A DNA stretch of 56,983 nucleotides from an archaeon (GTDB taxonomy: Archaea; EX4484-52; GLR71). The position numbers and the translations under genes were made by a program. The first letter of the stretch is position 1. The number at the start of each line of letters is the position of its first letter. Where the stretch lies: NCBI GenBank assembly GCA_013138805.1, contig WTCA01000030.1:1-56983 (forward strand), read 5' to 3'. The notes under the pieces were generated by a model. That model saw only the letters and a list, made by a program, of their open reading frames with translations. It made no database searches and had not been told where the DNA came from. Shown piece by piece: positions 8,278 through 56,983 of this stretch.

Positions 8278-8366
8278 TGTTATCACTTTTTAAAAATAAA
8301 AAAACATATAAAGCTGTTGTTTTATATTTAATAATATTGGTTATAATCTTTATTAAGTTTGAGATT

Positions 8367-9233: not shown

Positions 9234-10118
9234 TTATGATGCTATAAGTGTCAATGTACCCAGTGCAGTTTCTCCTGCAGGCATACCGTATGGGATAGAT
9301 GCATGAATAACTATATAGTCTTCAGCTCCAGGTACAAGGTCGTCCTCTCTTATATATGCTAAGTTTCCGCAGAGACCACCACCATATGTCGCATTGTAAT
9401 TGTATTTGTATATATATATCTTGTCGCATGTGCTTGCTGTAGCAATACAGTAACCTGCAAGAGGGCCGTCTGTGCATACAAAAGAGCCCCAAATGCCAGT
9501 GCTGACAGCACCGCATGTTGACAAATCGGATGAAAGGTCACGATTAAAGTCAGTAACATTTTCAGGTACTGTCTTTATTTCAAATACTGTACCTGTGGTA
9601 TTGCAGTATCCATCTGTGCCGTTCTCAACTTTCCAGAGATATTCATTTCCTGATGCATTTCTATACCATCCGTGCCCGAAATTTTCTGTTGCTGAGTTAA
9701 GGTCAAGAACCTCACCTGCAAGGATTGATGAAATATTCCATTCAAGCCTGCCTGCATGGTAATAAGTAGCATTTGTTGAGTTCCTTACAAATATCATGCC
9801 TGCTGCGGAATATGCACTAGCAGTTCCTGTAGGAAGAGGATTTGTCGATTCATCTGCGTCTGTGCTTGTATCCAGATACATGTTGGTTACATTTAAAGAA
9901 CCTGTATTTCTGATAGTTATATTTGAGACACCAGCAGCTGAATCTTCTCCAGGATTAAGGGTCCATGTAAAAGTGTTTGGAAGGACAACTATAGCTCCGA
10001 CAGAGCTTATAGTAATATTCACAGTCAATGTATCGTCTGCTGCGAAGGTCATAGGACCCGTAATCAAAGCCAAAACAATAATAGCTAATACAATCTGCAA
10101 TATAGATATCTTTTTCAT
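9234..10118 (-). CDS. Secreted Cys-rich, sequon-rich protein without membrane anchor (hypothetical; last gene of the cluster)
   Basis: Sec-type signal MKKISILQIVLAIIVLALITGPMTFA/ADD. Many N-x-S/T sequons and 8 Cys in the C-terminal half. No C-terminal TM. ATG at 10116-10118. Confidence 0.7.
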   Translation of the reverse strand: MKKISILQIVLAIIVLALITGPMTFAADDTLTVNITISSVGAIVVLPNTFTWTLNPGEDSAAGVSNITIRNTGSLNVTNMYLDTSTDADESTNPLPTGTASAYSAAGMIFVRNSTNATYYHAGRLEWNISSILAGEVLDLNSATENFGHGWYRNASGNEYLWKVENGTDGYCNTTGTVFEIKTVPENVTDFNRDLSSDLSTCGAVSTGIWGSFVCTDGPLAGYCIATASTCDKIYIYKYNYNATYGGGLCGNLAYIREDDLVPGAEDYIVIHASIPYGMPAGETALGTLTLIAS

Positions 10119-10184
10119 AATGATTACCTTTCGAAGGTTTTATAACATTATTTGGGTTAAGGAGAGTATATATATATTTCGGTT

Positions 10185-11510
10185 TTATGACATACTTGTA
10201 TCCTGAAACTTTTTCGCCATTTCATCCTTTTTCATGCTGCGCTTATGAACATATACTGCAATCAGAGATACGGCAATTATGACAATCATAGCAATCATAA
10301 GCAAAAGCATTGGCGCTCTTGATAAAAGTGAATCACTGCTTCTTAAACGCGCAAGCTCAATCACTGCAAGCTCCAGATGCCCTCTTGTATCTTTAAGATA
10401 TGCACGCACCTGCCCGTAATCTTTAAGGTCGTGGTAGTCTTTTGCAAGAATCAATGCTGAATCGGCATCATCTATATATCTTTCAAGAAGAGTCGTGTTT
10501 CCCCCAGCAAGATAAAGCGAATGGGTCTCATCCATAAGGCGCGTTATGATATACCTATAATTCAATATCATATCCATAAGGTTTTCATCAAGAAGCAAGG
10601 ATCCTACAACAACATCAATATGACCTGTCCTTTCTATCCTGTTTGCAATAACCTTAAAATCCATAGGGTATATGCCATCCTTTATACCTGCCGGAACATC
10701 AAGAGTTATCATAAATATTGCAGACTGTCCTCCTTTCAAGGTCTGTATGTTCATCGGCTGCGCACCAACTGCGATATTTCCTATGATACGCGGAAGGAGC
10801 AACAAGCGCCTCAAAGTCATCGTACCTGTGTTATTCACCAGGATATACACTACAGAAGTATCTCCGGACATGACATAAATTTTATCCGGATGCGATAATG
10901 TTATCATTGTCCGGCCATAATCATACAGTTCAAAATCCAATGCTGAAAAGATATCACCTAAAAATCCTGAGCTCGGACTGGTGCTTGATCCGCTACTACT
11001 ATCTGAATCTGAATCATCATCATCGCCGGTACTATCACCAGGGTCAATAGGAGGAACATACGCATAATATGGCTCTACATAAAAAGAGCCCCAGGCATCG
11101 GCAGTACTATCTCCATAAGACACCATGACATGTGCCCAGTAAAAGCCATATGCCACTGGAGTATATTTCAATGTCTCAAAAATTCTGTCCCCAGGCCCCA
11201 TAGATGCTGTGTGACCTATACGGTTTGCAATCACAGTCATATTTGCATCATATGTGCCAATCTGCAATAGTGTCTTTTTTATATAGGGAGTGCTTCCTGT
11301 GTTTCTAAATTCTATATCAAAATCCATATTTGAATATTGGATGGCCTCTGCAGGATACCCAAGATAACTGATCTTGCCATATTCCATAGGATTTATGGAA
11401 ACATTTACTTCACCCAGCAAGATATTTCCTGTTATGGATGGATGATCCTGAAATATGATAAAGATGCAGATGGTGAAAATAAATAATGCAAGATATCTGT
11501 TATTATCCAT
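10185..11510 (-). CDS. Membrane-anchored surface protein: N-terminal TM/signal, two CARDB/NEW3-like beta-sandwiches joined by an acidic Ser/Asp linker, helical stalk, C-terminal TM
   Basis: Linker DPGDSTGDDDDSDSDSSSGSS. NEW3-like motif VPAGIKDGIYPMDFKVIAN. C-terminal anchor MLLLMIAMIVIIAVSLIAVYVHKR. The ATG at 11508-11510 overlaps the upstream stop by 8 nt (ATGGATAA). The track start at 11531 is a TTG. Confidence 0.7.
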   Translation of the reverse strand: MDNNRYLALFIFTICIFIIFQDHPSITGNILLGEVNVSINPMEYGKISYLGYPAEAIQYSNMDFDIEFRNTGSTPYIKKTLLQIGTYDANMTVIANRIGHTASMGPGDRIFETLKYTPVAYGFYWAHVMVSYGDSTADAWGSFYVEPYYAYVPPIDPGDSTGDDDDSDSDSSSGSSTSPSSGFLGDIFSALDFELYDYGRTMITLSHPDKIYVMSGDTSVVYILVNNTGTMTLRRLLLLPRIIGNIAVGAQPMNIQTLKGGQSAIFMITLDVPAGIKDGIYPMDFKVIANRIERTGHIDVVVGSLLLDENLMDMILNYRYIITRLMDETHSLYLAGGNTTLLERYIDDADSALILAKDYHDLKDYGQVRAYLKDTRGHLELAVIELARLRSSDSLLSRAPMLLLMIAMIVIIAVSLIAVYVHKRSMKKDEMAKKFQDTSMS

Positions 11511-12180
11511 ACCTATATATCCTCCATGCAAGTATAATTATCAATGCAAGACCAAATATTACAAATGCTGTCTTAATTGTTTCGGGCGAAATAATAATAT
11601 CTGATCTGCCGGCAGGTTGCGCATCAATAAATTCTCTGACAATTTTCGGGTTTATATCAACTGAAACTGTTTTTGGATCCATATGTATATTAGGCATATC
11701 CTGATATAAGCCTTTCACTACATCAATATCAAAAAAGAACAATCGCTCCTGCTTCAACGAGAACCCGGATGCATTCCCAGGACTGCCTGCAACAGCTTTA
11801 ATAATCACTGTCTTTTTTCCGGGAATTTCATATTCAGGAACAGACACATAGATATCTATCAAAGATGCTTCTATCGTTTTCTTAAGTGAAGGAAGATATA
11901 TGTGTTCAATGTTTCCAACAGCTGTGCTATTAAGATAGAAACTGTCAGGATTTGATATGACAGTCCAATTATCAGGAACCTCTATATTTTCTAATTTTAC
12001 ATCATAACCATAATCGCCAGTATTCCAGAACAGAATAGCAAACATCACAGTATTTCCGGGAGATGTGTCCTGAACTGCTGATTTCTGCAGAGTCCCAAGA
12101 TTGAATGCGCTTACAGGTTCCAATAACATAAATGCAAAAAAGATTGCAAATACGATAAAATTACGGTTGCGGATCACCAT
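11503..12180 (-). CDS. Small type-I surface protein (signal peptide, NEW3/COG1470-like beta-sandwich, C-terminal TM)
   Basis: Signal FAFMLLEPVSA/FNL. Motif GNTVMFAILFWNTGDYGYDVKLENIEVPDNWTV. C-terminal anchor AFVIFGLALIIILAWRIYRYG. The ATG at 12178-12180 overlaps the upstream gene by 20 nt. Confidence 0.7.
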   Translation of the reverse strand: MVIRNRNFIVFAIFFAFMLLEPVSAFNLGTLQKSAVQDTSPGNTVMFAILFWNTGDYGYDVKLENIEVPDNWTVISNPDSFYLNSTAVGNIEHIYLPSLKKTIEASLIDIYVSVPEYEIPGKKTVIIKAVAGSPGNASGFSLKQERLFFFDIDVVKGLYQDMPNIHMDPKTVSVDINPKIVREFIDAQPAGRSDIIISPETIKTAFVIFGLALIIILAWRIYRYG

Positions 12181-17094: not shown

Positions 17095-17109
17095 ACAAAT
17101 CTCCTTAAA

Positions 17110-17853
17110 TCAATCCAATAAATCCATGAACATGCCAATCAGTTTTCTGATACCTGATTCTTTTTTGAGCAAAAATGTCTTTTCACCATAAAATCTTCCA
17201 TCCTCACTTACAGCGACCAGGGTAATCTCTGATTCACGGAACACACCTGCATCATAATTTATGTAGATTGTTCTTGATTTTCCTGCAATCACATCTTCAA
17301 TAACATTCTGCTCAAAAAGCCATCCTGCAGTATATTTTACAGGATAGATGATTATTTTTCCGGTATCATTTTCTGCGGTGATCTTGATTTTGATCTTATC
17401 ATCATATACGCGGACCATCTCAATATCTACCGCATCGGAAGATGTTGACGCATCGTTAAAGATCCAGGTAATATTTCCAATATCAACAATGTCATAAGCC
17501 CTGTAAAGTCTTGCATCTGCTGTAATTATTTTGTCTTTCGGCTCATACCAATACATATTTATTGTGTCTCTCTCACCGGGATTAAGCAAAGATTCGCTGC
17601 TCCATATTGATGTGACTTTTTTGGTCCCGTCAGATATATCAAGCCGAATACGGGCAGCATAAGCAACACTTCCGGAATTGAACACATCATAACTTGCAGA
17701 CATAACATTGCTGTTTAACATGCAGCAATCAATATATTTTATATCTGTATTCAATAATTCAATAACATTGACTTCAATAGAGGTGCTGCATACAGCAGGG
17801 ACCATCATTAAGATAAACAATAAAGATAGTGTCAATTGCCTGTTTTTCGACAT
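17110..17853 (-). CDS. Secreted hypothetical protein (247 aa)
   Basis: Signal MSKNRQLTLSLLFILMMVPAVCS/TS. The ATG at 17851-17853 is preferred over the GTG at 17862. It lies 13 nt downstream of the preceding stop. Confidence 0.6.
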   Translation of the reverse strand: MSKNRQLTLSLLFILMMVPAVCSTSIEVNVIELLNTDIKYIDCCMLNSNVMSASYDVFNSGSVAYAARIRLDISDGTKKVTSIWSSESLLNPGERDTINMYWYEPKDKIITADARLYRAYDIVDIGNITWIFNDASTSSDAVDIEMVRVYDDKIKIKITAENDTGKIIIYPVKYTAGWLFEQNVIEDVIAGKSRTIYINYDAGVFRESEITLVAVSEDGRFYGEKTFLLKKESGIRKLIGMFMDLLD

Positions 17854-17865
17854 AATATGCACCGA

Positions 17866-18414
17866 TCATAAAAACAATTTCATAAAATTGTATCTTGCCC
17901 TCTTGACAACCAGGTTTATTTCACCTGAATAATTCCCCATAGGAGTATTCTTATCTGTCTTAAGCATAATCTCTATATCCTTAGTAACTTCAGGCCTAAG
18001 ATAAAAATTATTATCATTATAATGAATCATTGAAGAGATATTTCCGTATGCAAAAAACAGCATCTTTGCTGTATCTTCCTGTGTATTTTTCAAGGTCAAA
18101 AAACGCATCCCTATGGCACCGCCTGTCGGCACCACCCCAAAATCAAGACTTGTTGAATCAAGAGAGAAACCAATTGATATATTCTGCCCTTCAATAACGC
18201 TTATCTCTACAGATGTCGGATATTTGCTGATCTCGTAAGTGAAGAACAGATTATTATCATATAAAACTGTATGATCAGTCACAAGCGTATCAGGTTCAAT
18301 ATATGGCATAATCAACATATCTGCCCTGGAGAATGCAAATAGAGATATAATCATAAATATTGGCAAAAACAAAGCATATTTTTTGATTTTTTGATTTTTT
18401 GATGATTTACTCAT
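17866..18414 (-). CDS. Secreted/membrane hypothetical protein (182 aa) with PapD/ASH-like beta-sandwich motif
   Basis: Signal-anchor YALFLPIFMIISLFAFSRA. SLDFGVVPTGGAIGMRFLTLKNT resembles ASH/PapD-like openings. Codons 5-12 contain a 3x 8-nt tandem repeat. Confidence 0.6.
   Translation of the reverse strand: MSKSSKNQKIKKYALFLPIFMIISLFAFSRADMLIMPYIEPDTLVTDHTVLYDNNLFFTYEISKYPTSVEISVIEGQNISIGFSLDSTSLDFGVVPTGGAIGMRFLTLKNTQEDTAKMLFFAYGNISSMIHYNDNNFYLRPEVTKDIEIMLKTDKNTPMGNYSGEINLVVKRARYNFMKLFL
18378..18401 (-). repeat. Perfect 3-copy tandem repeat of an 8-nt unit (plus ATTTTTTG, coding strand CAAAAAAT) in the 5' end of the 182-aa gene
   Basis: Read directly: attttttg attttttg attttttg at 18378-18401, encoding ...SKNQKIKK... 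The unit length is not a multiple of 3. Confidence 0.9.
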
Positions 18415-18498
18415 AGCAATCTAAAATAAATTAGTCCTGAGTGCTTATATAATTTATGAGAAACAGGGTTTTAATTCCCGATTTTTATATAATATCCA

Positions 18499-19506: not shown

Positions 19507-19515
19507 TCCTATCAC

Positions 19516-19930: not shown

Positions 19931-19931
19931 A

Positions 19932-25826: not shown

Positions 25827-25831
25827 TCAAA

Positions 25832-28123: not shown

Positions 28124-28207
28124 ATTATCAACCAATATTATATTTTCATTAAAGTCCTATTTATCTGTACATCATATCATAACATACTTATCATAACATA
28201 TTTTTTA

Positions 28208-52200: not shown

Positions 52201-55200
52201 CGATTGCGCTGTCGCCTGAAGCAAGGATGATGGGGAGAGATACACCAGGATTGCTGTCTTCAATCAGCTTGTATATAGATATAGTGTCATCTATTGTATC
52301 GTTTCTCAGTTCAGAATCCATTGTGGCGTTAACTGTGATGGTAAGATTATATGCGCCGGAAGAGTTTGGTGTTATGTCCCAGTGAGCATCTTTTGTGTTT
52401 CCTGAAAGGATTGAGGCAATATACACGACATTGCTGTATGCAGTGCCGTTCCAGACTGTCCAGCCGGAAGGAACTGTTAATGTTGCGTTTATGTCTGTAG
52501 CATCGCCCTGCAATGCCATAAAGGTTGCGTTGAGACCGAAGGTTCGGTTCTCAAAGATTTCAGCAGGACTCTTTACTGAAGTTGCATCAATGACGGGTTC
52601 ACAGGATTCTGTATTGACATCAACTATGAAATTGTCTGAGATATTGTAATTATAATAACTGTCAAGAGATGTGTTGATGAAAGCGCGCCATAATCGTGTG
52701 CCGTTCTGGAATGTACAGTCAGGGATGAAATCAAAGTTTGCATGGCCTGTCGTATTTGTATTGTTTGTGCCGATGGTCTGCCAGATAGTATCTGCAGCAT
52801 CTCTTGTGACTTCAAAAGTGACTGTAGCTGCAGTCGTGTTGACATAATCCTGACGGATAAGGTCGTTTACACGGACTGAAAAGTTTGCAGACTGAGGCGG
52901 TAAGTAATGAGCATCAGATTCGTTTCCTGACGCGTATTCTACAGACACATTATCTTTGGTGACTGTCACCTTATGAGTTGAGGCGTCAAAATCTGAATAT
53001 GTACCGTTCATGTCAAACCTGTAATACCATGTGCCTATCTCGGACGATGTGAAATTACGATACCAATACTTTAAAGAGTCAACACAGTTGATGCAGTCTG
53101 TCGGTGTCTGGTTTATGCAAGTCGCACCATCACATGCAGTTGTCGGTGGAGGTGTCTGGGAAAGCATCAAAGAAACGGTATATACATCTGTAGGATGACC
53201 GCTGCTCGCTATGATTGAAAAGTTCCAGTCAGAATAACCCCAGCCGTGTGATAAGGGGATGCCGTCGGGATTTTCAAGCTTGAGCTTTTCCAAAAGATAG
53301 AACAGACTATCCCTTCCGAAAGAGGAGCCGTCCTTAAGCGTGCCATTATCATAATAGTATGTCTTGTTTGAATACATTGTGGTGTTATACCAGCCCATGT
53401 TGGTCTGCAAGGTTGTCGGAAGATCGCAGGTGTATGCGTTTGCACCCACAGGACTTACATCAGTACAGTTATAGCCTGAAGCAGCACTGTAATTGGCATA
53501 AAATCGTACTGTTGTCGTCAGAGGATCGCCGCAATCATCTGTGGTTGAGCCAAGGAACGGGATAGTGGCTTCCTGGGTATAATTGATTGAACCGTCAGGT
53601 TTTTGAAGGTCAAGAATTATGTCACCATAGATTGTGAAATTGAGATCAGCGGTTGTATTATATATATAGCAGGTTGATGTGGATTCTGCAACATAAGCTT
53701 TCCAAAGACGGTCGCCGACCTCATATTTAGGCAAGCATCCAGGTTCAAAAGAATACTGGGAATATCCGGTACTGTTTGTTGTGTTGCCGTATACAGGACC
53801 CCAGACACCGGGCGATAATGTCATTGTGAAGTTTACCATAAGATCAGGCAATACAGAACCGTTAAGATCGCTGACTCTTAATGAGAATTGGTTTGTCTGA
53901 GTACCGCTCCTGTTAGCTGTGGAATCTATGCCATATATGTAATCAAACAAGATTGTGTCCTGGGTCAATGTGAAATTGTTTTCTGATGTCTCAGCAGTTG
54001 TGTTTGTATTATTCATAGCATTTGTCATGTTGAATTTCCAGAACCAGGTATCCTGCAGTGAACAGTCAAAAGTCTGGGTGAAATTGAAATCCTGCCACTG
54101 GCCGATTAAAGTATAATTGCTTGAGTTCATCTGGATCCATGGACCGGACGGACTGGAACCTCTCCAAAGATATAATTCGGCTGTTGAATTTGTGTCAAAG
54201 ATGCTTATATTGAATGTTCTCTGCATACCCCAGCCTTCTGTTATAAGGTCAACTGACGCGTTCTCTGACTGAGGCACATTTGTCCAGGTCGTCATGTTGA
54301 ATGTTTCTGAAAAATTGTACTTGTAACATGAATCTGAGTCAGGTACAAAACCAAGCCATTCCTGTTTCTCTGTCGAATATGCAGAGTCTGGTGTGATATC
54401 ATAAAGGACATAACCGGTTGAGTTTGTTGTGTTTGTGCCAAGAGTATAATATTGTGTGCCCAAACCCTGCTTTGTAATGTTGATGCTGACTGAGGCTGAG
54501 GTTGATGAAAGATAAGTTGAGTTGTCTATATCATACACTCTCAACTGTATTGTGGAAGGATGATTCAATGTTGCGTTGGTCTCATTTCCTGCGATGTAGT
54601 CTATACGGATATTGCTCTCCTCAAGAACAAACTGCTCATCGATAGTGTAATCTGCGCCGGATGTTGTATAGTTGTTGCCTTCAGTGTCTGTCGCGTTGAA
54701 CTTGAATTTTTTTGTCTCAATATCTGAACAGCCATAAGTAGTGTTCCATGACAAGGTCGTATTTGAACAGGAAACGCACTGCTGGCTGGAACCTATCTCG
54801 ACCCAGTCCTCTGTTCCAAAAGTTGCCTGCCATAATCTGACAGTCACTGTGTCTCCAGTATTATCTGTTACATTCACTGTGAAATTTCTCAATGCAGACC
54901 AGCCTTCTGTCTTTGGTGTGACTTCGGCAGAATCCAGTTTTGGTGTTGATTTTATTTTTAATGCATCAGTTTCAGAAGATGTGTCATTATTATAGTAGCC
55001 TTTTGATGCGATGATTGTCACATTATAATTGCCTACAAGTTTTCCTGAAGTTGGCCAAAGACAGGTATATGGATTTTCAGTTGAGGAAGAATAACAGTAA
55101 TAGGATGTGCTGGCAGTTGTTATGTTGAAAGTTACATTTGTATCAGAAACTGCAGTCAGGCAGTCATCTGTCACATTTCCGCTGAAGGATACATCTGTAC

Positions 55201-56983
55201 CGGTCTCATATTCCTGCAAAGATGTAGGAGATATGTATGTTGCGTTAAGGTCGCCGATGATGTTAATAACAAGTGTGTTATAGCCGGTCGTCGTGTTGTC
55301 TGAATATGCCTGGGCACCGTTCACTGTGACATTCCAGTATGCAGGACCAACACTATAATTGCAGTTGGGATTGAAGCTTCGGATATAATCTGTGCCGTTC
55401 AATGATTCTTCCGTGACATTCTCAACATAACTGCTGCCGTTGAAGACATAGAAATGAATCTCGTCAAGTGTGATGTTTGGAGTTGATGAATCAAGAGTGT
55501 CCTGATCCAAGACAAGGTCCCAGACCTTTGATGTAAGATTGATTGTTGTCTGCGGAGCTGAGGTCCTGTTGACTGAAGAGCCGTTGTTTGTGAAAAAACG
55601 GAGATCTATATGATTTTTTGTAACATTGAACCATTGCTGGGAAAGAGTGTCATTTGAATATCCTGTTGAAGATGTTGCGTTGAACCTGAAATACCAGATG
55701 TTTCCTGCAATCGAATCGTTTGTGAAATATTTTGTTGTAGAAAATGTTGTGTTTTCACAAGTGGTGCAGGTTGTCTGGTTCTCAATCCACCAGACACCGG
55801 AACTGTTTGACATCCAAAGATAGACTGTAATGGACTCATTATCTATGCCTGTCACATTTACTGTGAAATTGTATGGGGACTGACCCCATGGCACTTCTGT
55901 AGCTGACGGAGATTTTGAAGCACTGTCTAATTGTATTGGGCTTCTCAGGAAAAAATGGCTCTCATTCAAAAGGAAACCGTCATTGTAACCGGTCTTATTG
56001 CTTGTAACAGTTACATTATACCAGCCAAGAGGAAATCCGGAATCAGTGTCAATGTTGCAGGAACCTGAGGTGGCAGTGCAGTTTCTTTCAAAAGCGTCAT
56101 GGATCATCTTTATGATTATTGTGGTATCGTCAGTTATTATCTCCTGACAGTCATCTTCTATTGCAGCAGTAAAAGATATTGCTGCATCTCGTGTAAAGTT
56201 TGATGCGCCGTCCGGGTTGACAAGAGTGTTTGAAAGGCTGCCAATCAATGTGAAGTTTATAGAGTCTGTGACATTATCTTTAACATCGCTGTCTTCATAG
56301 GTGCCGCCTTTCCAAGCATGTTTTGTCGGACCCAGATAATATTTGCCTTCATCAGCACACCAGTCACTGTTTGTCATAGTCCGGTTTATCCAGCCGTCAT
56401 CGCTTGATAAAGGTGGTGGGGACGGTTCAAAACCCTCTATATCATATATAGTTATCCATATCTTACTGTCTGAATTATTAGCATATGTGCCATTGTCCCT
56501 GTCATAAGACCTTATGGAAAATACAGTCGTATCGCTTCTGTTTATTGTGGCATCATGCAGAGGTTCCTGGATAACAGAATCAATATCATCTTTCTCAACA
56601 GTGTAACTGTATCCGGCGAGAGTGGAGGAACTGTCTGCATTTGTGGCATTGAACTTGAAGTCCCATGTTGACATATTATCTGCAACATAATCATAGGTGA
56701 AGTTTGCCTGTGTCCATGATGCGCATGATGTGCAGACCCAGCTGTCTATCAAGACATAGCTTCCTGCTGGTTTTTTGTGCCAGGCATAGACTGTGACATC
56801 TCTTCCGAACCTATCTTTTACTATTGCGGAGAAATTGAATTCCTCGCCCCAGCCGCCGATTGTCAAGGCGTCATTGCCATCTATATATAATGTGGAATTG
56901 TCCAGAAGAGGTGCGTAATCATATACTTTGACATTGAAGTAAAGATCCTGAGGTTCCTGGAAAAGTTTTCCTGTACGCCAGGT
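28208..56983 (-). CDS. Giant surface protein (at least 9,591 aa, 5'-truncated by the window edge) with a C-terminal TM helix and cytoplasmic HerA/DUF87-type ATPase
   Basis: One uninterrupted frame runs from 56983 to the TGA at 28208-28210. The track M at 56866 is an in-frame TTG. Thirty-nine further sense codons (TWRTGKLFQEPQDLYFNVKVYDYAPLLDNSTLYIDGNDA) reach the window edge without a stop or signal peptide. See the sub-features for architecture. Confidence 0.85.
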   Translation of the reverse strand, partial: TWRTGKLFQEPQDLYFNVKVYDYAPLLDNSTLYIDGNDALTIGGWGEEFNFSAIVKDRFGRDVTVYAWHKKPAGSYVLIDSWVCTSCASWTQANFTYDYVADNMSTWDFKFNATNADSSSTLAGYSYTVEKDDIDSVIQEPLHDATINRSDTTVFSIRSYDRDNGTYANNSDSKIWITIYDIEGFEPSPPPLSSDDGWINRTMTNSDWCADEGKYYLGPTKHAWKGGTYEDSDVKDNVTDSINFTLIGSLSNTLVNPDGASNFTRDAAISFTAAIEDDCQEIITDDTTIIIKMIHDAFERNCTATSGSCNIDTDSGFPLGWYNVTVTSNKTGYNDGFLLNESHFFLRSPIQLDSASKSPSATEVPWGQSPYNFTVNVTGIDNESITVYLWMSNSSGVWWIENQTTCTTCENTTFSTTKYFTNDSIAGNIWYFRFNATSSTGYSNDTLSQQWFNVTKNHIDLRFFTNNGSSVNRTSAPQTTINLTSKVWDLVLDQDTLDSSTPNITLDEIHFYVFNGSSYVENVTEESLNGTDYIRSFNPNCNYSVGPAYWNVTVNGAQAYSDNTTTGYNTLVINIIGDLNATYISPTSLQEYETGTDVSFSGNVTDDCLTAVSDTNVTFNITTASTSYYCYSSSTENPYTCLWPTSGKLVGNYNVTIIASKGYYNNDTSSETDALKIKSTPKLDSAEVTPKTEGWSALRNFTVNVTDNTGDTVTVRLWQATFGTEDWVEIGSSQQCVSCSNTTLSWNTTYGCSDIETKKFKFNATDTEGNNYTTSGADYTIDEQFVLEESNIRIDYIAGNETNATLNHPSTIQLRVYDIDNSTYLSSTSASVSINITKQGLGTQYYTLGTNTTNSTGYVLYDITPDSAYSTEKQEWLGFVPDSDSCYKYNFSETFNMTTWTNVPQSENASVDLITEGWGMQRTFNISIFDTNSTAELYLWRGSSPSGPWIQMNSSNYTLIGQWQDFNFTQTFDCSLQDTWFWKFNMTNAMNNTNTTAETSENNFTLTQDTILFDYIYGIDSTANRSGTQTNQFSLRVSDLNGSVLPDLMVNFTMTLSPGVWGPVYGNTTNSTGYSQYSFEPGCLPKYEVGDRLWKAYVAESTSTCYIYNTTADLNFTIYGDIILDLQKPDGSINYTQEATIPFLGSTTDDCGDPLTTTVRFYANYSAASGYNCTDVSPVGANAYTCDLPTTLQTNMGWYNTTMYSNKTYYYDNGTLKDGSSFGRDSLFYLLEKLKLENPDGIPLSHGWGYSDWNFSIIASSGHPTDVYTVSLMLSQTPPPTTACDGATCINQTPTDCINCVDSLKYWYRNFTSSEIGTWYYRFDMNGTYSDFDASTHKVTVTKDNVSVEYASGNESDAHYLPPQSANFSVRVNDLIRQDYVNTTAATVTFEVTRDAADTIWQTIGTNNTNTTGHANFDFIPDCTFQNGTRLWRAFINTSLDSYYNYNISDNFIVDVNTESCEPVIDATSVKSPAEIFENRTFGLNATFMALQGDATDINATLTVPSGWTVWNGTAYSNVVYIASILSGNTKDAHWDITPNSSGAYNLTITVNATMDSELRNDTIDDTISIYKLIEDSNPGVSLPIILASGDSAIAYFACDSGDYRAAYLNINYTNVTAGQKDVMLRVLSYNGTVWTDILHSYTINLTSDSTDRIPVLERQLNANGTGYCTFNITNIGSNGINLTAMNLQAYYNETVHIQNLQASINSTETTGMETGDGFFNVSVRIANSQNNQFEGTLWLNITNSTGAIINSSSQSISISADSIYLANITDINTSSWLSDDYDLNAYLVNGSTSYDRTEPFIFKNVSVSSRVLDWMCNQTTEQYNVTITNPFTDTIEYNVSLETPAGWSYSPAYQLVNTTSPGNYTVSFNLTSSSSAAEIVYINATVAYTYPVSEKTRNSTSMINESNSIAILEITRETPSNIGTDTVFDSQLTIYNKGCTASSGSTIIKETISTGWTPANPGIMTNEYGSDIELISATTDLINNIVTWELGTIPVNKYAVLTYQAKSPVSTSQAGTLYHNTTWENKNFVEYDTHPVRTFNYTEESHLEFNIETLQQPAYPWVEPRSSQLNVSYNYSLKVTNIGDNSTSSDWNVTLDIPGECNITQVYDSGTWNDTSRKITWQLSDISPYASSYVNFTANCTAEGSYIFVAEGIRNTTAYTTISNDTAIGCESSSSCSATENYGFTKPADARYEMLTGIDFYIRYNWTGYNLTIGQASVNISDDSGMIHTVWQNYTFADTYNLLWSNYSIDTSDRASFVDSARDISISSYADATSDPYVNASVDKLSYTWVTGKLFRESQNLYFNVKVYDYTPLLDNSTLYIDGNDALTIGGWGEEFNFSAMVRDRFGRDVTVYAWHKVSAGSYVLIDSWVCPSCVSWTQANFTYDYNYTNISTWDFKFNATNADGSTELSGHSYTVEKDNVAVYNETPQWNATVMRSSALNFTTRFNDTDNGTAPEILEFGKGYFRISMFGSNTTFNTYYPQSPVVNSTGYMLYEMTTAEWCDDAKSYSLGQNYYITGLSGSSYYKDNSTIPSPYGSIPFILLGNLSASSMSSPDGSVNYTRGSAVPLDGTIKDDCNAVKSDSAKYGTEYVLSNGATNYSVIASLATDSWNSPGNAPLGWYNVTMISYSEGTEFGVYVNSTDILVNAFYLSTVPQSDYVDVSPLSDGWSASPVNFTINVTDEDNNTVIVYLYLKKGAGSWNLYENWTCYDCKDNQTVFNRTFTQDEVDDWYYLFNASDISGNINTSLQTGSFTIEKDDISFSDVVPVAVDINRTAGSANLSLRIYDDDNNTYTTNLSSSSPDEVQFWITNDTAASFWREETTDTKNTTHYYLDFNPGCDYVAGQQDWKVNTSSDYFKTNDTEGFFTLNVNIYGTLAATQTFPDTSTNYTQDDIIPVNGTLSDDCGTDVTGASVYFNLTRNANTFRCPGAGYATDEGGGVYSCNFDTVGISGGYYNVTMYAEKPYNHPDNDSRVDAFFLTAPIYLSDETVNSADSGWGSERNFSIIVSHYNGVNLTLWHSKGASGGPYSVVNNTFLSGPVDTQVNIFKNYTCSDISTWFYKFNATDSYYEGNATTTFHDYTLTTDDILLGQSYIGNASYVNRSDTLGQVSVLLAHTVNDTVRNLLAGNPQATVYLNVTNDNADNFTTFNSNTTNSSGYANFNFLPDCSYSVGEQKWQTYTDGDTCYSDQVSSNYTIYIQGDLRPNVTFPKDLEQYQNSIENVTINITVLDECNQSIAGASLNLTLNNTDTGFASYCTAVIDLGSGNYSCEWNTTDTGVGRYDVIAKAYNVSYYNNGTITEADSFRVIPPINNVPNLTNQTMLQEADGWGAIFDFSVEVYDKDYDTVNVSFWISSDNSTWVFEDSKNCTSCNGWNQLNFSYEGFSCSDQQVWYYKFNATDYENDTELSSSNFTVEKDNVTVSYFAGGGNATSVNRTGSGTTHFILQVFDSDNVSTPTLPQGRNGTFWVSYNDTTYDGGYFNQTNSTGHMNYIFKPSCSPKYSIGPQNWTGGIKDDSCYFDTNITQPLIVYVIGEMNDTLVSPSGEDFFDDDNVTVRINLTQECDVTDLVDDATVSFNLSHDTYYTACSVVNEGSGYYNCTWNVTGAPGGWYNITLNSTRQYLNPLFKTYLNSFFHQINPVLSGASADKSSVVWGNNPAKSQVTFTVNVTDDDDTVDIYLWESMGSATGPWTLADQTSCSDCINTTKTLTRLYSAAGDIDTWYWKINASDTDSLSDEQPVYDFNVTKRSIYINYVLGNSTDINRVGTNSTVLTVQAFDNYTDSALGAGMQGYFWVTTNGTTTGIWGTSLADTTDPSGNLNITFNPGCSAPLYLTGKQDWKAGIIGGTNYFDENSTLYELDINGTLSNNLEVPVPTALYQKGTYITMYGTVSDDCTATTGTYVNESDTIKFDITSGANSYVCSSFTDLGNGTYNCTWDSSVAFLGIHNITMNSTKPYYDMSSIFVEDALRLGESPELGETFVDVELEGWGYNYTFKVEFRDIEPDDTDNISFWKAYNAAGPWYFVDSEEKFNAVAWINITFNKIFDCSDLTQGPYLYYKFNVTDSFGFTNESVIKNITLEKDDIEVIYVSGAGVSIDREDADSEYFKVRINDTDLGSIVGASINATVWKTYNEISYDSGNTTVTDADGYVNYSFNPDCGYSASTDQYWLIGTTDNICYKDKNLTVIRQFAIVGQLKNSLYLPVQDSVFNVTDSIFVNISTGTDCPAEGNQAGASIALNLTHSGSSTYQCSPVNDESTGIYNCTWDSTGKLEGNYTVNMTSTLSDYYPNTTWWTDRFWLENLNTTYDNESVTPSSGGWSRNFTFNISVDDPESDNVTCTLFTNTTGVWVDKGQSIVMGGTGNCSILVWDFTPQDMGTASYKFQIEDAESSNTFNTTVFSGPTVTKPSVNVTFYSANDTSVNRSAGSETLIVRAYDLENKSYINSSNVTFWITTDGTTYDSGSLLQTNSTGHASYIFSPTCTPYYETENQLWLAGITDDNYLYSNTTENYTITIYGQMTNLVTSPSGEKYLRGEENVTIRANITSDCSSQETMNTTYVNFTMTSQYTETQYACTTEIYNESTGYYNCTFDTAGKEPRGYNITMNSTQPFYITEITTDVYSEGTESFWIETRPTLAASDVTPSSGGWGEKHYFTVNATDYDLDTLIVKAWFRNESDGYVPANSLTNNTISGVNQYVTFSPKTFTNVYADTTWYYKFNVTASDGDGYTNETIEKTFYIEKDTVSIEYISGNNSIVNRSAQAYDPDYNITLITRVWDVDKDPDAIIPFKRSKFYLTNDTFSNYIPYPFLPTSYINSNITGYQTYTFKPDCTYAVGPQKWKSGLLDNFEYNSTNSTEFYFNITTTPLVAMFDYPTGGLTFEKGVDNILLRGNVTDDCGPVSDANVNISVVQGGTTYALCYPAGDETDGWYNCTIANTTHNTWPVGLYNITIKADKTYYNDSNVFVVENAFRLVTRPVLSNPTSTSTQGGSIGGWGEFWTFTVDIMDNDGDSSNVSLWINRTGSWELLDSVIWSQGDPTITFAGKTFSCAGAADLGVKQYKFNVSDDYNYTDNITSTMTIEKDDVDAIPVSTGGQNVDRNGTATILLKTQILDTDRGYTSVESGVNGKIWVTVNWSNLSSFDDGYALQTDALGYLSYDFDINCSYTTGEHAWEGGTSGSVCYKDSLYPTEYFDSYGKLYTSVESPVNGSSYGTGTPVFMRFNVTTDCSVEGRIEAESKGIELQSPSASWYSCSPINDETGSDAGWYNCTWDSTLKEPGNWTIKTNASNSTYYTAIDTLTEYFELLNNPPAYSNLNVTPNSSAWGATYTFSLNFTDPDADTVNCSLYTTTNGGASWIFRNMTTLASPAVCNLTVSDFNCGDIGTDNYFKFELDDSYNTINTTNMSGPNMTIDDIKIIYMDGNNKDVNRSYGMQQLKVYINDTVRGMPVSPDIDVYFNITTDGTTYILEGFNTTSGGNATYDFTPSCSYDVGDQKWYAEVNDSCYTPKNTTEYNLTVYGTLYNSLASPLGVEYFLDDNVTLRANVTSDCVAEVMNESNVSFRYFRTGYSDTCIINNESTGYYNCTFNNTGMPPGYYDFEVNSSQSFYNNDSEVFQYAYGISSFWIETLPYLSLPSPNPSTGGWGETFYFTTNATDRDNDLMTVRLWIKKTSSGTWIFKNSTTAQGINVTVNLSAKFISGNDMDDWEFKFNVTADDAWDEYETSNVSFTVEADDVRIEILSGNNSIVNRSDLPGNSNPNVTFSVSVYDDDKDLLITSPINTRFYVTKDGSSFETLDTISNNTGYFFVTLDPDCTYSLGPQMWKASSVIGGSWYKLQNSSDIEFNITAIPLLTTLTEPDGITRVRGVDDILIRGNVTDDCGLVPGASSEFVVEQSAIPYFTCPPDNTLYDEADGYYNCTIPAASTTGWFTGDYDINFTASKLYYNSSDIYRKDSAFRLVTVPEISNPSITTITSVGLSDYGWGESWTFEVNLLDEDQDNVNVYLWVNLTGDWELLNSTVCTNCGSIQTISFSGHGFSCSDIGTRGFKFNASDNYNYTNETSGTFNIIRDDTITYYGGMGDLSQIGREGDDIEVFSVRIFDADHNVYVGSSIPNATGKIFVTTDGSSYDLGTQNQTDSSGYLYYSFNPDCNYSVGGHKWKGGSNGDACYKDSNSSDRDTDIIGQLKSSIADPAEGSNILVGAIVNLNVSIYDDCTVQMSEASITHEAVYQDIVFEDITPVTNNSIGYYNSSWDTLFHQGGNWSFRINASKTDYYSNSTIFSNWTYLNNTPPIVENFTVSPDVEGWGRVYTYEAQISDTQQDNITCDLFVSTDNGALWILKNSTFIETAPAGDANCTLSVMDFDCAEIGTDNLYKFQIYDGTNKFNTSQMSGPNLTADTVSIEYIFGNDSVVNRSGAQTALFTARVLDLDNASMPVMTDSSVTFWTTYDNPTYDTGTVILTNSTGYANYNFNPGCSSPTYKIGPQKWKAGVTDSCYAAINLSLEYNTTIMGDLINTIENPPFSSEYLRGENVTLSSTITPTITDDCNLGLENINNSFTFYNEDNVSNYSCISEEIVGGYYECTRNTTDMAARWYDTEIISWEQYYNNGTLLKANHIFVTTLPDLTDETAITDVGGWGETFYFSVNVTDEDWDNVTLNLYTKKYTDGAWGAPKNTTTLYNPQNEYAIISWNNPDCANIDTWEYYFEASDTHAEVNTTTPHNFTIDKNDVTIQYATGDNSYVWRNGTHNTTLMLDILDYDRGNISVGTGTSARFWVTTDANDTSSWDIGKDTVTLDSSIAYYFMQQFPDGGQKCNYTVGIQKWKGGIVNDVCYKDKNSTEYDLSVNSTLLLNITNVYEQGYLRGDLIPLISTVSDDCGPVENVTISYALLNFPNEYFCNKQSNAGWNESGGDYNCTWDSSSKPYKWYNVTADVSKEFFADNESSGDERFFLGTTPILELVSVSPKFGGWGENHQFSVRLTSLDLATNNVSLWKSFDNSSWDLVNWQLVGTPINQWVYFNERFTSNDYLTPPSGLNYYKIISESVFGFSSETEVYNFTLDYDNITISIDPASNSTVRRLGVTTAFLNVRIYDTDYEVYQNDTNATIWVTKDGNIFTYNESCSSSDGYCGIDYDPQCDSDVGAQKWKIAVDDPSYQIINSSNVSLSVIGQLYTNPIDPQENVIFNRNTTVSLNTTVTDDCSNPVLDAVVSWYNSTPIQIGSGYDTSWNIPIYYTKGPDTITVNATRADYDIGTNTTGIYVYGWSMISSILPLNLSSYLAGYNIYVQCNVIDANTTENITGYNVSFYKNDVFQDSNLTDSNGTAVWIWSTASENYGWYNISCSISSDDSLYYTPSTYYENTTVRINRSPVITEIVLSNPDIYRNNTFSPYDTNITVTIYDALIGPAENADVWFYNSTGFMDNCTTDVNGNCYITYDAPENITPQGYVVYINSTKAGLEDSITNQTTIGIYGFLYINITGPANGSSWSKAEILNLTSYIENENSYVDTATVDWYIDSGFVATGQNTTYPLVSQIPGPKTLVSNATRPYYITGTDNISININGLVDVIWWEPLNGSQQAYPGSFDVKCLVKDNNSGASVEGYSVDFWYLNGSDYVYNGTYVTNSSGLAGYVWYPDSKGTIDFMCNITDNATVFYSPNIGNATATIIVEDINAPSIANMTIIPNSTLEANLNTTNITAIITDDIGVYSAFAMITLPNGSIVNVTMANTVNDTYSTLYMPPIGGNYSVDIVASDSPPENNTNVTYAGSFSVWGKIDMTGAQTDSFTAFSITQISGESFVLTVNATNNGPATAYNVSISVDEIPIGTLTYNTTNYDCGNLSIGEMCTRAFLVTVPAKTGPQLITVYNTIWWDNPDRTMNSTVGSTIVVVASNPVLEVIPDYIQNQTPHGETTLIDTVTVSASGNDAITNILLDKVGNTLAIDCPLCNLTISQPSWGYLPAGSNFTSDISIDIPYGQDAGYYWTWVSAESDNAPDDSVFVNATVPLDLSWERVPSTFGTILALVNTSTTQIGTITASNNGNSERNIQVLLSGNGTSFVTREPLAFSLGIGASSNVTVNYSIPSSSAQDMYYVMVYLSDATGNPPFSVTDFWLNVTDLPPVISNVSIDPMGYESGTGYTNISAEVTDNVAVSQVWLNSTKPNGTVFIDYFAMNGTSVYLNYSENETGIHKIRICANDTASLVICTPEYNVTVAVNTTIITETNITNATIYGVTLYSGLNITINFTTLNAGYSRALDVNTTITYPALWNVSPSQFAMGNIFKTPYNGNTQLSIPKDIIGDYYINFTSNWTNYDNSTDNLTTAIKVTIGSNPVLNVTEDPVMFIIENGNNDSKNLTLESLGNDIAEDIEFNCTSGIGCADFNISFNPSSIVNLTKGNSTNFTITAYVPEIYSSGIYYMTYTISTSKTNTSANITVIIPENMTWMHNPVQISKVVIANTTGEFGSVRVSNIGNMYLTVSAQSTNTTLFGVNASMLDLPIGNYSDVMINYTAPELTSLQTYTAYFRTTNLTAFPQTHDTLLNITIHPLYLDVISPTSSSPVLNVSKNDNMTVIFNLTYAFVPLDDNVTWQINLTNAGTSVSVNITSVNYSVASGLWTVNFTAPDVISGVAYDLVADAFYATDNLLITATEQDAIVYTDATPPQLSVSLPASIVNGMPVTIFINTTDLGGMRNVLVDITFPNGTIFADNATLISFSGDDYFYELEFTDTSGLGPYQVVISAYDLSDNVNVTTAAFDSYLLSYFAGYSYDLESVGNATTIANFSMYKHDTPTLMHSFESDNMTGYYNESVYVRLYDVSVDVLNVTFDFNDFSMPPGNIFNPAVFGDIPVSLIGSGPKKAIYYDTLMGVNPKITFDYSPYDDVVVSNLAIYHCDNWAIKTGCVSLWLRRNGSIDTNLRTISVDTTVVTGAYAVAQYICGNAICESAYGESNSICPADCVIDIPTFPPMPSAITGGSGGGTGDTGDDGGDDDDTSILIPPELDENIVPIEIKSTLIYITLAPGERSIHSIEIKNNQDMISTSKLSVDGLVWDLIQLEKTEVTVNANSAENVKISVYALPSTMPGTYTGDIVITTGNSIYKTPITVKVEIKKEALLDVIINVLSNVVKPGDDLKMLVTIKNMGETKTVEDITMEYVIKNLETEEVLTTYSETLAVNQTLSFVKSINIPNSTEETRYVIDANAKYSNAEKTASSADVFDVSTQPWPLILLRKLFMSWVTYIVLLILIPGIYFGRKAYLSYLEKKRKAARYIFPTDYSKLPQKGEESVKVGKIAETDINAFINIKNLTMHSIAAGGTGSGKSVTAMSTAEELLDLGIPVVVFDPTAQWSGFIHPCKDPHMLELYSKYGLKPENAKSYKTNIIVVESADSLTDAEIDIRQYMKPGEITVFVMSKLSSAELDKFVRRTIKSIFSIQWPEAKTLRVLIVYDEMHRLLPKYGGKGGYLELERGCREFRKWGLGLFMISQVLADFKGAIKANVANEIQLRTKYNGDIQRIKQRYGPDYAMRVAKLTVGAGLIQNPEYNDGKPWFIQFRPLLHDTGRLSNEELDTYMGLKRSIDTLAKKVEVLKVKGVNTYDIEIELNMARTKLQQGVFKMSETYIQSLKARLENM
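28211..29337 (-). other. Cytoplasmic HerA/DUF87-like (FtsK-HerA superfamily) P-loop ATPase domain of the giant protein
   Basis: Walker A HSIAAGGTGSGKSV (GGTGSGKS = 29135-29158). Walker B LRVLIVYDEMH (LIVYDEMH = 28748-28771). The downstream motif CREFRKWGLGLFMISQVLADF...NVANEIQLRT matches the HerA pattern EGRKfGlgl.lisQrP...c.t.i.lrl. Confidence 0.75.
29338..29400 (-). other. Single transmembrane helix of the giant protein
   Basis: LFMSWVTYIVLLILIPGIYFG is followed by the positive stop-transfer RKAYLSYLEKKRKAARY. This implies N-out/C-in topology. Confidence 0.75.
30110..30290 (-). other. Membrane-proximal Cys-rich motif plus Gly/Asp acidic linker
   Basis: YICGNAICESAYGESNSICPADCV (about 30213-30284) is followed by PTFPPMPSAITGGSGGGTGDTGDDGGDDDDTS (about 30110-30200). 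Confidence 0.7.
35200..50130 (-). repeat. Array B: 15 tandem three-domain supermodules (~330 aa, ~990 nt each) of the giant protein
   Basis: The conserved G-W-G/S anchor (plus-strand ccccaNcc) recurs at about 49988, 48980, 47996, 47003, 46031, 45029, 44045, 43063, 42032, 41048, 40094, 39083, 38117, 37127 and 36134. Spacings are 954-1031 nt. Confidence 0.85.
49716..50119 (-). repeat. Copy 2 of a ~400-nt high-identity intragenic duplication (partner 56580-56983)
   Basis: The offset is exactly 6,864 nt (2,288 codons), for example ccgccgattgtcaa at 49990 and 56854. By eye about 85-90% nucleotide identity, far above the other inter-module comparisons. Confidence 0.85.
50545..51255 (-). other. Two DUF11-like ('conserved repeat domain') segments in the non-modular insert of the giant protein
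   Basis: First segment: ITRETPSNIGTDTVFDSQLTIYNKGCTASSGSTIIKETISTGWTP...NIVTWELGTIPVNKYAVLTYQAKS. Second segment: LKVTNIGDNSTSSDWNVTLDIPGECNITQV...KITWQLSDISPYASSYVNFTANCTAEG. Both fit the DUF11 pattern (..v.N.G...a..v.v.D.lp.g......W.lg.l..g.s..l.y). Confidence 0.55.
52600..56983 (-). repeat. Array A: 5 (or more) supermodules of the same type, continuing past the window edge
   Basis: G-W-G/S anchors lie at about 56852, 55889, 54902, 54233 and 53242. The 54902-to-54233 module is short (669 nt) and lacks the third domain. Confidence 0.8.
56580..56983 (-). repeat. Copy 1 of the ~400-nt high-identity intragenic duplication (partner 49716-50119), truncated by the window edge
   Basis: Protein TWRTGKLFQEPQDLYFNVKVYDYAPLLDNSTLYIDGNDALTIGGWGEEFNFSAIVKDRFGRDVTVYAWHK... 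versus TWVTGKLFRESQNLYFNVKVYDYTPLLDNSTLYIDGNDALTIGGWGEEFNFSAMVRDRFGRDVTVYAWHK... Confidence 0.85.

Follow-up and report, generated by a model that had tools for sequence, protein, structure and literature searches.

A giant SPEARE-type gene and its conserved eleven-gene cluster in a DPANN archaeon: a probable cell-envelope apparatus for host contact

Introduction

What might a DPANN archaeon build from eleven consecutive same-strand genes, one of them at least 9,591 codons long, whose products are nearly all secreted or membrane-anchored? The question is raised by contig WTCA01000030.1 of archaeal assembly GCA_013138805.1, all 56,983 nucleotides (nt) of which form the window analyzed here; the gene cluster fills positions 9234–56983. 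A preliminary description, made from the DNA letters alone, had proposed a candidate multi-protein cell-surface apparatus. That proposal gained support from gene order conserved in relatives, and no member of the cluster matched a well-characterized unrelated function in Pfam, NCBIfam, PADLOC or PHROGs. We conclude that this is an Aenigmatarchaeota-type SPEARE locus within a conserved eleven-gene cluster, most likely specifying one cell-envelope apparatus for host contact, a composite reading that we hold with moderate confidence.

DPANN archaea account for a large share of archaeal diversity, and their cultivated members all live attached to a host. Cryo-electron tomography (cryo-ET) of DPANN cells has revealed nanotubes, cones and cytoplasmic bridges; its authors state that the proteins forming them are not known. 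The main genomic suspect for host contact is the SPEARE giant. Hamm et al. 2019 (PMC6642349) described SPEARE proteins of up to 8,553 amino acids (aa), mostly extracellular, with a transmembrane (TM) segment near the C-terminus and a conserved intracellular region, and reported similar sequences in Woesearchaeota, Aenigmarchaeota, Micrarchaeota and Altiarchaeales. Reva et al. 2023 (PMC10266531) described giants of 8,880 and 9,409 aa with a signal peptide, ∼75 immunoglobulin (Ig)-like domains, a TM segment, a ‘VirB4/TraG-like’ ATPase and a coiled-coil tip; a second ATPase gene adjoins the giant, and a secretion ‘straw’ was proposed. The serine-protease, laminin-G and restriction-endonuclease domains of the original SPEARE definition were rejected in that study.

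Results

The giant protein

The giant SPEARE-type gene (28208..56983, minus strand) runs off the contig. There is no stop codon between the TTG at 56866 and position 56983, the end of both contig and window; because the open reading frame (ORF) is open there, the product has at least 9,591 aa, its N-terminus is missing, and its signal peptide lies outside view. The preliminary description had missed both the truncation and the SPEARE membership. Even incomplete, the protein is longer than all 150 best cluster representatives from our protein library search (maximum 7,878 aa) and longer than the 9,409-aa record published for cultivated archaea.

The ectodomain carries ∼19 super-repeats of a ∼330-aa unit. 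Tile self-search, together with repeat spacing, placed ∼4 copies in a zone A at 52964..56983 (minus strand; aa 1–1,340), and tile self-search placed ∼15 copies in a zone B at 35222..50068 (minus strand; aa ∼2,300–7,250). The copies are 23–49% identical (median 28%), Tandem Repeats Finder reported no DNA-level tandem repeat in the gene, and the giant form recurs in dozens of species; for these reasons we do not regard the gene as an assembly artefact. A chance ORF was likewise rejected, given a frame free of stops over 28.8 kb at 40% GC and the conservation seen in hundreds of genomes. Pfam matches in the giant to Ig, NEW3 and Big models were weak; for NEW3 the domain was upheld at E 3e-8. Two ectodomain regions lacking internal paralogues gave no Pfam enzyme domain and no PDB sequence relative, and the 9,552 giant residues scanned gave no serine-protease, laminin-G, restriction-endonuclease or WD40 Pfam match.

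Sequon density and hydropathy place the bulk of the giant outside the cytoplasm, with one TM helix near the C-terminus (29363..29419, minus strand; aa 9150–9168, numbered from the TTG at 56866) and a cytoplasmic C-terminal domain. N-glycosylation sequons number 6.0 per 100 aa in the giant ectodomain and drop across the TM helix to 0.26 in its cytoplasmic part; the corresponding values are 6.7 for the ectodomain of a 1964-aa partner and 0.4 for a 767-aa coiled-coil partner (both described below). Sequon density is a clean topology marker in this cluster. The membrane-proximal ectodomain module (29531..30910, minus strand), composed of NEW3/CARDB-like beta-sandwiches, is conserved and is common to short (∼730-aa) paralogues; used as a query, it matched 78 of 84 loci. 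It forms, with the TM helix and the 384-residue cytoplasmic domain, the conserved part of the giant, that is, its last ∼900 residues.

The cytoplasmic ATPase domain

Positions 28208..29362 (minus strand) encode a HerA-clade P-loop ATPase followed by a C-terminal helical bundle. The preliminary description had called this tail HerA-like, and the searches bear it out. Pfam DUF87/HerA was matched at 28985–29239 with 34.7 bits, against a cut-off of 23.2, and a profile search of PDB sequences (hmmsearch) ranked HerA first (E 3.6e-10). An AlphaFold2 model of the last 440 residues of the giant (predicted local distance difference test, pLDDT, 87.5) shows the TM segment extending as a long helix, then an ATPase core and a C-terminal three-helix bundle. 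The top Foldseek match to this model was the Sulfolobus HerA hexamer 4d2i (E 1.7e-11), although with a TM-score of only 0.41–0.48; HerA complexes of defence and repair followed, and the coupling protein TcpA and FtsK came later. PADLOC HerA models matched the ATPase at E 3e-15, the NCBIfam TraB and PHROG terminase-like matches were weak, and Pfam found no CagE_TrbE_VirB domain in the giant. By sequence and modeled fold, the domain is nearer to HerA than to VirB4 or VirD4. Walker A (GTGSGKS), Walker B (DE) and a REFRKWG motif are invariant across several DPANN phyla in an alignment at 39–59% identity, which argues for a catalytically active ATPase.

Membership in the SPEARE family

The giant belongs, with high confidence in our judgment, to the DPANN SPEARE family, since its ATPase domain is directly homologous to those of named nanohaloarchaeal giants. 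In phmmer comparisons the window domain matched the C-terminus of SG9 SPEARE-1 (8,553 aa) at E 3e-112 and that of BNXNv_0298 (8,880 aa) at E 5e-115; AQV86_02330 of SG9 (P0077) matched the C-terminus of the giant at E 1e-115. Matches to the standalone ATPases of the same two loci were as strong (E 8e-117 and 3e-120), and a homologue of the coiled-coil partner follows the second ATPase in both (E 5e-13 and 3e-6). The window protein is, judged by these homologies, a new and unusually long member of a known, functionally uncharacterized family.

Two observations concern the nanohaloarchaeal loci themselves (Nanohalovita BNXNv, L085 1–13478; SG9, L087 1–14138). The ATPase of the giant and the standalone ∼625-aa ATPase are paralogues, about equally close to the window domain. 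The literature that we found on these giants does not mention the coiled-coil homologue after the ATPase pair.

Layout of the cluster

In the ORF listing, eleven ORFs in a row lie on the minus strand between 9234 and the end of the window at 56983, the unidirectional run that had been described. Immediately downstream of the giant ATPase gene comes the 767-aa cytoplasmic coiled-coil partner (25832..28135), which lacks a signal peptide and a TM segment, and then a 1964-aa type-I glycoprotein (19932..25826). The accessory block opens with a 338-aa type-I protein (18499..19515; given as 335 aa in the preliminary description) and continues with proteins of 182 aa (17866..18414) and 250 aa (17110..17862), each with a signal peptide by hydropathy, and an 813-aa type-I protein (14653..17094). 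An 831-aa secreted, heavily glycosylated Ig-like repeat protein (12161..14656), a 225-aa type-I protein (11503..12180), a 448-aa type-I protein (10185..11531; 441 aa from the ATG at 11510) and a 294-aa secreted Cys-containing protein (9234..10118) complete the run, all on the minus strand.

Several structural claims of the preliminary description could be compared with these genes. In a hydropathy scan every product except the 767-aa protein had an N-terminal signal-peptide-like hydrophobic stretch; the claim of signal peptides or anchors throughout thus stands for the visible proteins, and for the giant the relevant end lies past the contig edge. C-terminal TM anchors were found in exactly the six proteins that had been called type I: the giant (aa 9150–9168) and the 1964-aa (1859–1877), 338-aa (306–324), 813-aa (731–749), 225-aa (201–219) and 448-aa (408–426) proteins. 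The reported overlaps are exact, namely TTGA at 14653–14656, where the 813-aa stop meets the TTG start of the 831-aa gene, ATGGATAA at 11503–11510, at the junction of the 225-aa and 448-aa genes, and 20 nt at 12161–12180 between the 831-aa and 225-aa genes. The remaining intergenic gaps measure 3–15 nt, apart from four spacers of 66–416 nt. Promoters had been suggested at only a few spacers; TATA-like boxes 26–39 nt upstream of the 338-, 182- and 294-aa genes fit that suggestion without proving it. The recurring SNP(I/V)L...GND motifs are where they had been reported, at nt 23633 and 22961 in the 1964-aa protein and at nt 33391 and 32086 in the giant. Pilin-type signals and FlaI/PilB-type machinery had been reported absent from the cluster, and indeed Pfam found no family of type IV pilus or archaellum machinery there, such as a prepilin peptidase, a FlaI/PilB ATPase or a FlaJ/PilC platform; the 294-aa family, for its part, has Sec-type AxA signal peptides.

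Distribution and conserved gene order

Conservation of this gene order in relatives, named beforehand in the preliminary description as a point on which the idea could fail, turned out to be strong. A search with the giant's C-terminal 700 aa gave over 145 homologues in DPANN. When a single genome per GTDB species was scanned, at least 516 loci encoding a relative emerged, of which we analyzed the best 80, a set biased to the kin of the query. Loci were fetched with 10-kb flanks, ORFs were called stop to stop with start sites approximate, and taxon labels are those of the deposited metagenome-assembled genomes (MAGs). The 80 loci are mostly from Aenigmatarchaeota; others are labeled Micrarchaeota, Undinarchaeota, Nanoarchaeia, Woesearchaeota, Parvarchaeota and Altiarchaeota. 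In 72 of the 80 the ATPase ORF extends without a stop to the 5′ edge of the sequence fetched, and in 44 at least 3,000 aa, the maximum visible in a 10-kb flank, precede the ATPase. A representative library of 1.84 billion proteins yielded 358 clusters with E <1e-30. Among 138 new top representatives, 68 had at least 2,000 aa and 21 at least 4,000 aa, the longest reaching 7,878 aa, and the ATPase was always C-terminal. The four longest relatives (P0191, P0182, P0148 and P0142), full-length at 6,873–7,878 aa, begin with signal-peptide-like segments.

The coiled-coil gene is a near-constant companion: its homologue lies directly downstream of the ATPase gene and on the same strand in 74 of the 75 loci with enough sequence. 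A ∼1,900–2,100-aa homologue of the 1964-aa protein comes next in 42 of 61 loci, and five further loci have only a ∼330-aa version that corresponds to its C-terminal NEW3-stalk-TM module. In one locus (L027) homologues of the 338-, 182-, 250- and 813-aa proteins follow the coiled-coil gene in order, at 26–36% identity.

A second set of loci, seeded with the 294-aa family, came from metagenomes (91 relatives, of which 33 fetched loci of at least 6 kb were counted). Homologues were found of the 1964-aa protein in 29 of the 33, of the 338-aa protein in 28, the 182-aa protein in 28, the 250-aa protein in 27 and the 813-aa protein in 25. Counts were lower for the 831-aa (15), 225-aa (14), 448-aa (13), coiled-coil (8) and ATPase (5) proteins because flanks ended at 10 kb. 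The order does not vary: ATPase, coiled-coil, a small gap, 1964, then 294 inverted and often duplicated, 338-182-250-813, a gap, and 831-225-448 (examples are L096, L099, L123, L130, L141 and L150). At least ten metagenomic contigs have the nine genes distal to the coiled-coil gene in window order, with the 294-aa gene alone displaced; where flanks extend further, the coiled-coil and ATPase genes follow. The sole rearrangement in the window is the 294-aa gene, which lies at the far end on the same strand, whereas in relatives it is inverted between the 1964-like and 338-like genes. Gene order is kept across many contigs at 30–45% protein identity.

Minimal paralogous systems also exist (L003 10001–15553, L069, L075 and L082), consisting of a ∼730-aa TM-ATPase, a ∼520-aa coiled-coil protein, a ∼330-aa NEW3-stalk-TM protein and a MinD/ParA protein. 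At least two MAGs hold a giant and a minimal system together (L028 with L069; L015 with L075). In another locus (L004, 6381–12608) the short ∼330-aa partner and MinD/ParA accompany a large form, which has at least 3,095 aa and is truncated where the contig begins. Relatives have further neighbors, missing from the window, downstream of the 1964-like gene (L008, L011, L017, L018, L021, L033 and L059), or either between the coiled-coil gene and the 1964-like gene or beyond the 1964-like gene (L014, L019, L035, L036 and L061); those that recur are a ∼220-aa ‘LTDYKNFWLIW’ protein, a MinD/ParA ATPase, a ∼150–170-aa multi-TM HExxH protein and small helical ‘GKIS..F’ proteins.

In the closest long relative (L002 1–11776; 87–96% aa identity) the giant gene is split into three reading frames, and the public gene call retains only the last 591 aa of the giant. 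The size and frequency of giant genes are probably underestimated in databases, because gene callers and assemblies fragment such genes, as in this relative. Separately, Hamm et al. 2019 (PMC6642349) reported no matches in Nanoarchaeota-type or Parvarchaeota lineages; we observed relatives in genomes labeled Nanopusillaceae, Nanoarchaeia and Nanoarchaeota (P0008; L067, L076) and in one labeled Parvarchaeota (L072).

Features of the partner proteins

The 767-aa coiled-coil protein has a conserved core at ∼aa 243–530, flanked by Pro-rich and acidic low-complexity sequence. Only generic coiled-coil models matched it; the PDB profile search gave no solved relative and Pfam no relative. A SHOCT-like motif was considered and set aside as not significant (E 0.2). 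A word-indexed search with the core returned one near-identical match. More broadly, Pfam, NCBIfam, PADLOC and PHROGs gave no family assignment for the coiled-coil protein or the accessory proteins.

The 1964-aa glycoprotein consists of a signal peptide, a ∼540-aa N-terminal region, three NEW3 domains, MG2, and a NEW3-stalk-TM module, with its TM segment at 20196–20252 and an 87-aa cytoplasmic tail. Pfam recognized the three NEW3 copies (E 1.8e-26) and MG2; the N-terminal 540 residues gave no Pfam match among ten diverse members of the family. The NEW3-stalk-TM module has a paralogue in the 448-aa protein (E 4e-9 against the C-terminus of the 1964-aa protein), and the 448- and 1964-aa proteins have in common a PAG...G.YP....IAN module. 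The NEW3-like sandwich that had been assigned to both is upheld by Pfam in the 1964-aa protein, and for the 448-aa (earlier 441-aa) protein depends on homology, with no Pfam match. Several type-I partners have this same membrane-proximal arrangement of NEW3 (plus stalk), TM and short tail.

In the 813-aa protein a NEW3 match fell below threshold (E 0.0094; 16.6 bits against a cut-off of 24.4). Its K/R-rich cytoplasmic tail, correctly noted in the preliminary description, has 64 aa, 21 of them K or R, and all 19 homologues examined have a C-terminal TM segment and a tail of 43–68 aa, usually basic. The further idea that this tail pairs electrostatically with the coiled-coil protein remains speculative: most homologues have a basic tail, but the acidity of the coiled-coil homologues is only mild, at a median net charge of −1.6 per 100 aa. 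A metagenome scan with the 182-aa alignment found no relatives.

The signal peptide of the 294-aa protein is of the Sec AxA type; its gene has a TATA-like box of its own and is followed by a T-rich tract. Its family (50 database matches and the metagenome relatives counted above) has four conserved cysteines. The AlphaFold2 model is confident (pLDDT 89.5), and Foldseek found no PDB structure for it at E ≤1e-3; matches to TasA, CanA and pilus subunits had E 0.3–1.1 and are not evidence.

A 119-aa ORF with hydrophobic N- and C-terminal segments lies on the plus strand at 19571–19930, within the 416 nt that separate the 1964-aa gene from the 338-aa gene; its sole homologue is an identical Logan contig. 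We considered whether it is a relic of the inverted 294-like gene that occupies the same position in relatives, and rejected this since it has no similarity to the 294-aa family.

Genomic setting

The first 9 kb of the window hold archaeal housekeeping genes: a LeuA/CimA-type synthase, Sua5, PyrI, PyrB, a DnaJ-domain protein and a PIN-ATPase-KH protein. GC content is even across the window (0.34–0.44). The best matches to cluster proteins are in MAGs of Candidatus Aenigmarchaeota (Aenigmatarchaeota), where the ATPase region has 84% identity and the 294-aa protein 79%; the nearest species-representative genome is isolate LFW-46 (74%). This housekeeping flank, even GC and the Aenigmatarchaeota matches together lead to the conclusion that the locus is chromosomal DNA of a DPANN archaeon.

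Just outside the cluster, a 599-aa protein (6487–8286, minus strand) joins PIN, a T2SSE/PilT-like ATPase and KH; no other Pfam match in the window is secretion-ATPase-like, and this combination of domains gives no hint of a pilus motor. A 269-aa ORF on the opposite, plus strand (8256–9065), with a hydrophobic N-terminal segment and no Pfam match, marks the cluster boundary.

Other observations in the housekeeping part concern RNA-like and small genes. A tRNA Rfam match at 4952–5011 (minus strand) scored 30.1 bits, barely over the gathering score, and spans model positions 8–63 only; it lacks an acceptor stem, has a poor T-arm and an anticodon loop CCU, and ARAGORN called no tRNA. The match may mark a tRNA gene that is degenerate, split or unusual in some other way. 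Some 900 nt at 4956–5853 (minus strand) contain no ORF of at least 100 aa. At 5246–5381 (minus strand) a weak match to archaeal RNase P RNA (20.6 bits against a gathering score of 84) has the full model within 136 nt, and may be chance or a strongly reduced RNA gene. Two small overlapping genes at 1730–2408 (minus strand), with DUF2283 and DUF4258, look like a toxin-antitoxin-type pair.

Discussion

A candidate apparatus and its rivals

That the eleven genes act together in one apparatus is, from their sequences and conserved order, likely; that this apparatus serves host contact, by analogy with other DPANN, is somewhat less so, and probable all the same. We picture the ATPase domains forming a ring under the membrane, probably a hexamer, like every characterized HerA/FtsK/VirB4-clade enzyme. 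Such a ring would bundle several giant chains into a long glycosylated fiber or stalk, and the coiled-coil protein would dock on the ring. The type-I proteins would make a collar or base around the fiber, which the secreted proteins might decorate or extend. The assembly would mediate contact with a host cell, and ATP would either move a substrate across the symbiont membrane or do mechanical work there. Translocation of a substrate by the ATPase is a tentative proposal that we would put below even chances. The substrate might be nucleic acid, by analogy with CedB/CedD, or protein; import of nucleic acid seems somewhat more likely than the published export of effectors, because DPANN cells depend on their hosts for building blocks.

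Several points weigh against this picture. The cluster has no polytopic membrane protein that could serve as a channel (no CedA or VirB6 analogue) and no pilin, by hydropathy and Pfam, and with one TM helix per chain a pore would have little to build on. The ATPase is far under the curated NCBIfam cut-offs for HerA, CedD, TraC and TraD (bits against cut-off: HerA_Thermprot, 40.7 against 800; CedD, 39.8 against 600, E 2e-10; TraC, 18.8 against 567; TraD, 14.2 against 366). The MinD/ParA protein and the small HExxH membrane protein that relatives usually have, and their small SHOCT-like proteins, were not found in the window. No relatives are known for the 294-aa protein or for the N-terminal part of the 1964-aa protein, and any role given to either is a guess. 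The host-contact role itself is extrapolated from other DPANN, because Aenigmatarchaeota have no cultivated host system.

Might the cluster be no machine at all, and instead a co-regulated island of envelope, S-layer and adhesin glycoproteins, with an ATPase that serves the giant itself, for example in membrane insertion, quality control, extraction or tension sensing? Of the eleven gene products, ten are surface proteins of plain beta-sandwich type that lack a catalytic domain, and no channel component was found. The stalk and TM modules presumably resemble archaeal S-layer anchors, which would also favor such an island. Yet gene order is kept at only 30–45% protein identity, a dedicated partner in the cytoplasm is retained all the way from Aenigmatarchaeota to Nanohaloarchaeota, and the minimal paralogous systems keep the core without the big adhesin parts, which points to a core machine whose ectodomains expanded later. 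We consider the island unlikely. An effector ‘straw’ resembling type IV secretion, in which Ig-like domains bind the host and a VirB4/TraG-like ATPase exports effectors into it, is the model published for the homologues SVXNc_0300 and BNXNv_0298 (Reva et al. 2023, PMC10266531). The ATPase is indeed a member of the FtsK-HerA superfamily, as are VirB4 and VirD4; TcpA and FtsK are among the Foldseek matches, and there are weak TraC, TraD and TraB matches. However, sequence and fold searches both put HerA nearest, the TraC and TraD scores are far below cut-off, and the cluster has no VirB4 N-terminal domain, VirB6-like channel, VirB2-like pilin or candidate effector. The second, standalone ATPase that Reva et al. 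used as support is missing from the window as well. For this locus we judge the ‘straw’ improbable, slightly more so than the island.

Far less probable than either is a HerA-type anti-virus defence system, like Sir2-HerA or DUF4297-HerA, or an integrated mobile or conjugative element. The PADLOC HerA match, the weak PHROG terminase-like match and the defence HerA complexes among the best Foldseek matches are what such a system would offer. Gene context led us to reject a defence system, a provirus and a conjugative element: there is no Sir2, DUF4297 or nuclease effector partner and no integrase or replication gene, the flanks are housekeeping genes, composition is uniform, the ATPase forms one chain with a glycosylated ectodomain of 9,000 aa, and the locus is a stable chromosomal feature in hundreds of species.

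A bolder form of the host-contact apparatus makes the cluster the intercellular bridge of DPANN, of the nanotube or attachment-organelle type seen by cryo-ET. ATPase rings would bundle ∼1-megadalton chains into a hollow or sheathed fiber hundreds of nanometers long, on a base of type-I proteins, with the motor pulling host nucleic acid or other macromolecules inward; the minimal system would be the ancestral core. We offer this as a long shot.

Significance

In the SPEARE literature we found descriptions of the giant, the adjacent second ATPase and a downstream proteasome activator, and did not find the nine-gene partner set. Nor did we find a published description of the near-universal coiled-coil partner, the ∼1,960-aa partner, the eight-gene accessory block or the minimal paralogous systems. 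A comparative-genomics paper on Aenigmarchaeota does not mention the locus, and the text of Sakai et al. 2022 describes no conserved DPANN HerA cluster. To the SPEARE giant the locus adds a near-universal cytoplasmic partner, nine more envelope proteins in Aenigmatarchaeota-type genomes, and minimal versions. A defined, conserved parts list is useful because the proteins of DPANN nanotubes and attachment organelles are, according to the cryo-ET authors, not known; the list gives candidate machinery for DPANN host contact and a testable hypothesis of ATP-driven translocation.

Comparison with known systems

Four kinds of known system invite comparison. Giant repeat adhesins, like the window protein, present tandem beta-sandwich repeats over thousands of residues at the cell surface. 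Bacterial RTX/Bap-type proteins are such adhesins; to our knowledge, giant repeat adhesins have no cytoplasmic motor domain and no conserved cytoplasmic partner. An archaeal example, cited in the SPEARE literature, is halomucin of Haloquadratum (PMC6642349).

HerA (4d2i; the HerA-NurA system) is the best sequence and fold match for the ATPase core, with DUF87 over its cut-off. It differs in that the window ATPase is membrane-anchored and fused to a giant ectodomain, and no NurA, Mre11 or Rad50 gene is present in the window.

CedB and CedD, the closest analogues whose function has been tested, are TM-anchored HerA-clade ATPases needed for DNA import in Sulfolobales (PMC11868833). Like the putative apparatus described here, they are archaeal, TM-anchored members of the HerA clade placed at cell-cell contacts; the window ATPase has weak similarity to CedD, and the paralogous ATPase pair of Nanohaloarchaeota recalls the CedB/CedD pair. 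The Ced ATPases, however, have no extracellular domain, the window cluster has neither the polytopic channel proteins CedA and CedE nor the pilin CedA1, and the CedD score is far below cut-off.

The closest counterpart is the nanohaloarchaeal SPEARE locus. Nanohaloarchaeota have a standalone ∼625-aa paralogous ATPase between the giant and coiled-coil genes, whereas the window has none. Conversely, the ∼1,960-aa partner and the eight secreted or anchored proteins of the window and its kin were not found in the two nanohaloarchaeal loci. The ectodomains cannot be aligned, and the portion present here has no WD40, laminin-G or protease-like parts. The likenesses lie in the overall plan: a giant of comparable or greater length (5,998–9,409 aa published, at least 9,591 aa here), extracellular Ig-like repeats, one TM segment near the C-terminus, a cytoplasmic ATPase followed by a helical tip and, downstream, a homologue of the coiled-coil partner in Nanohaloarchaeota and the window alike.

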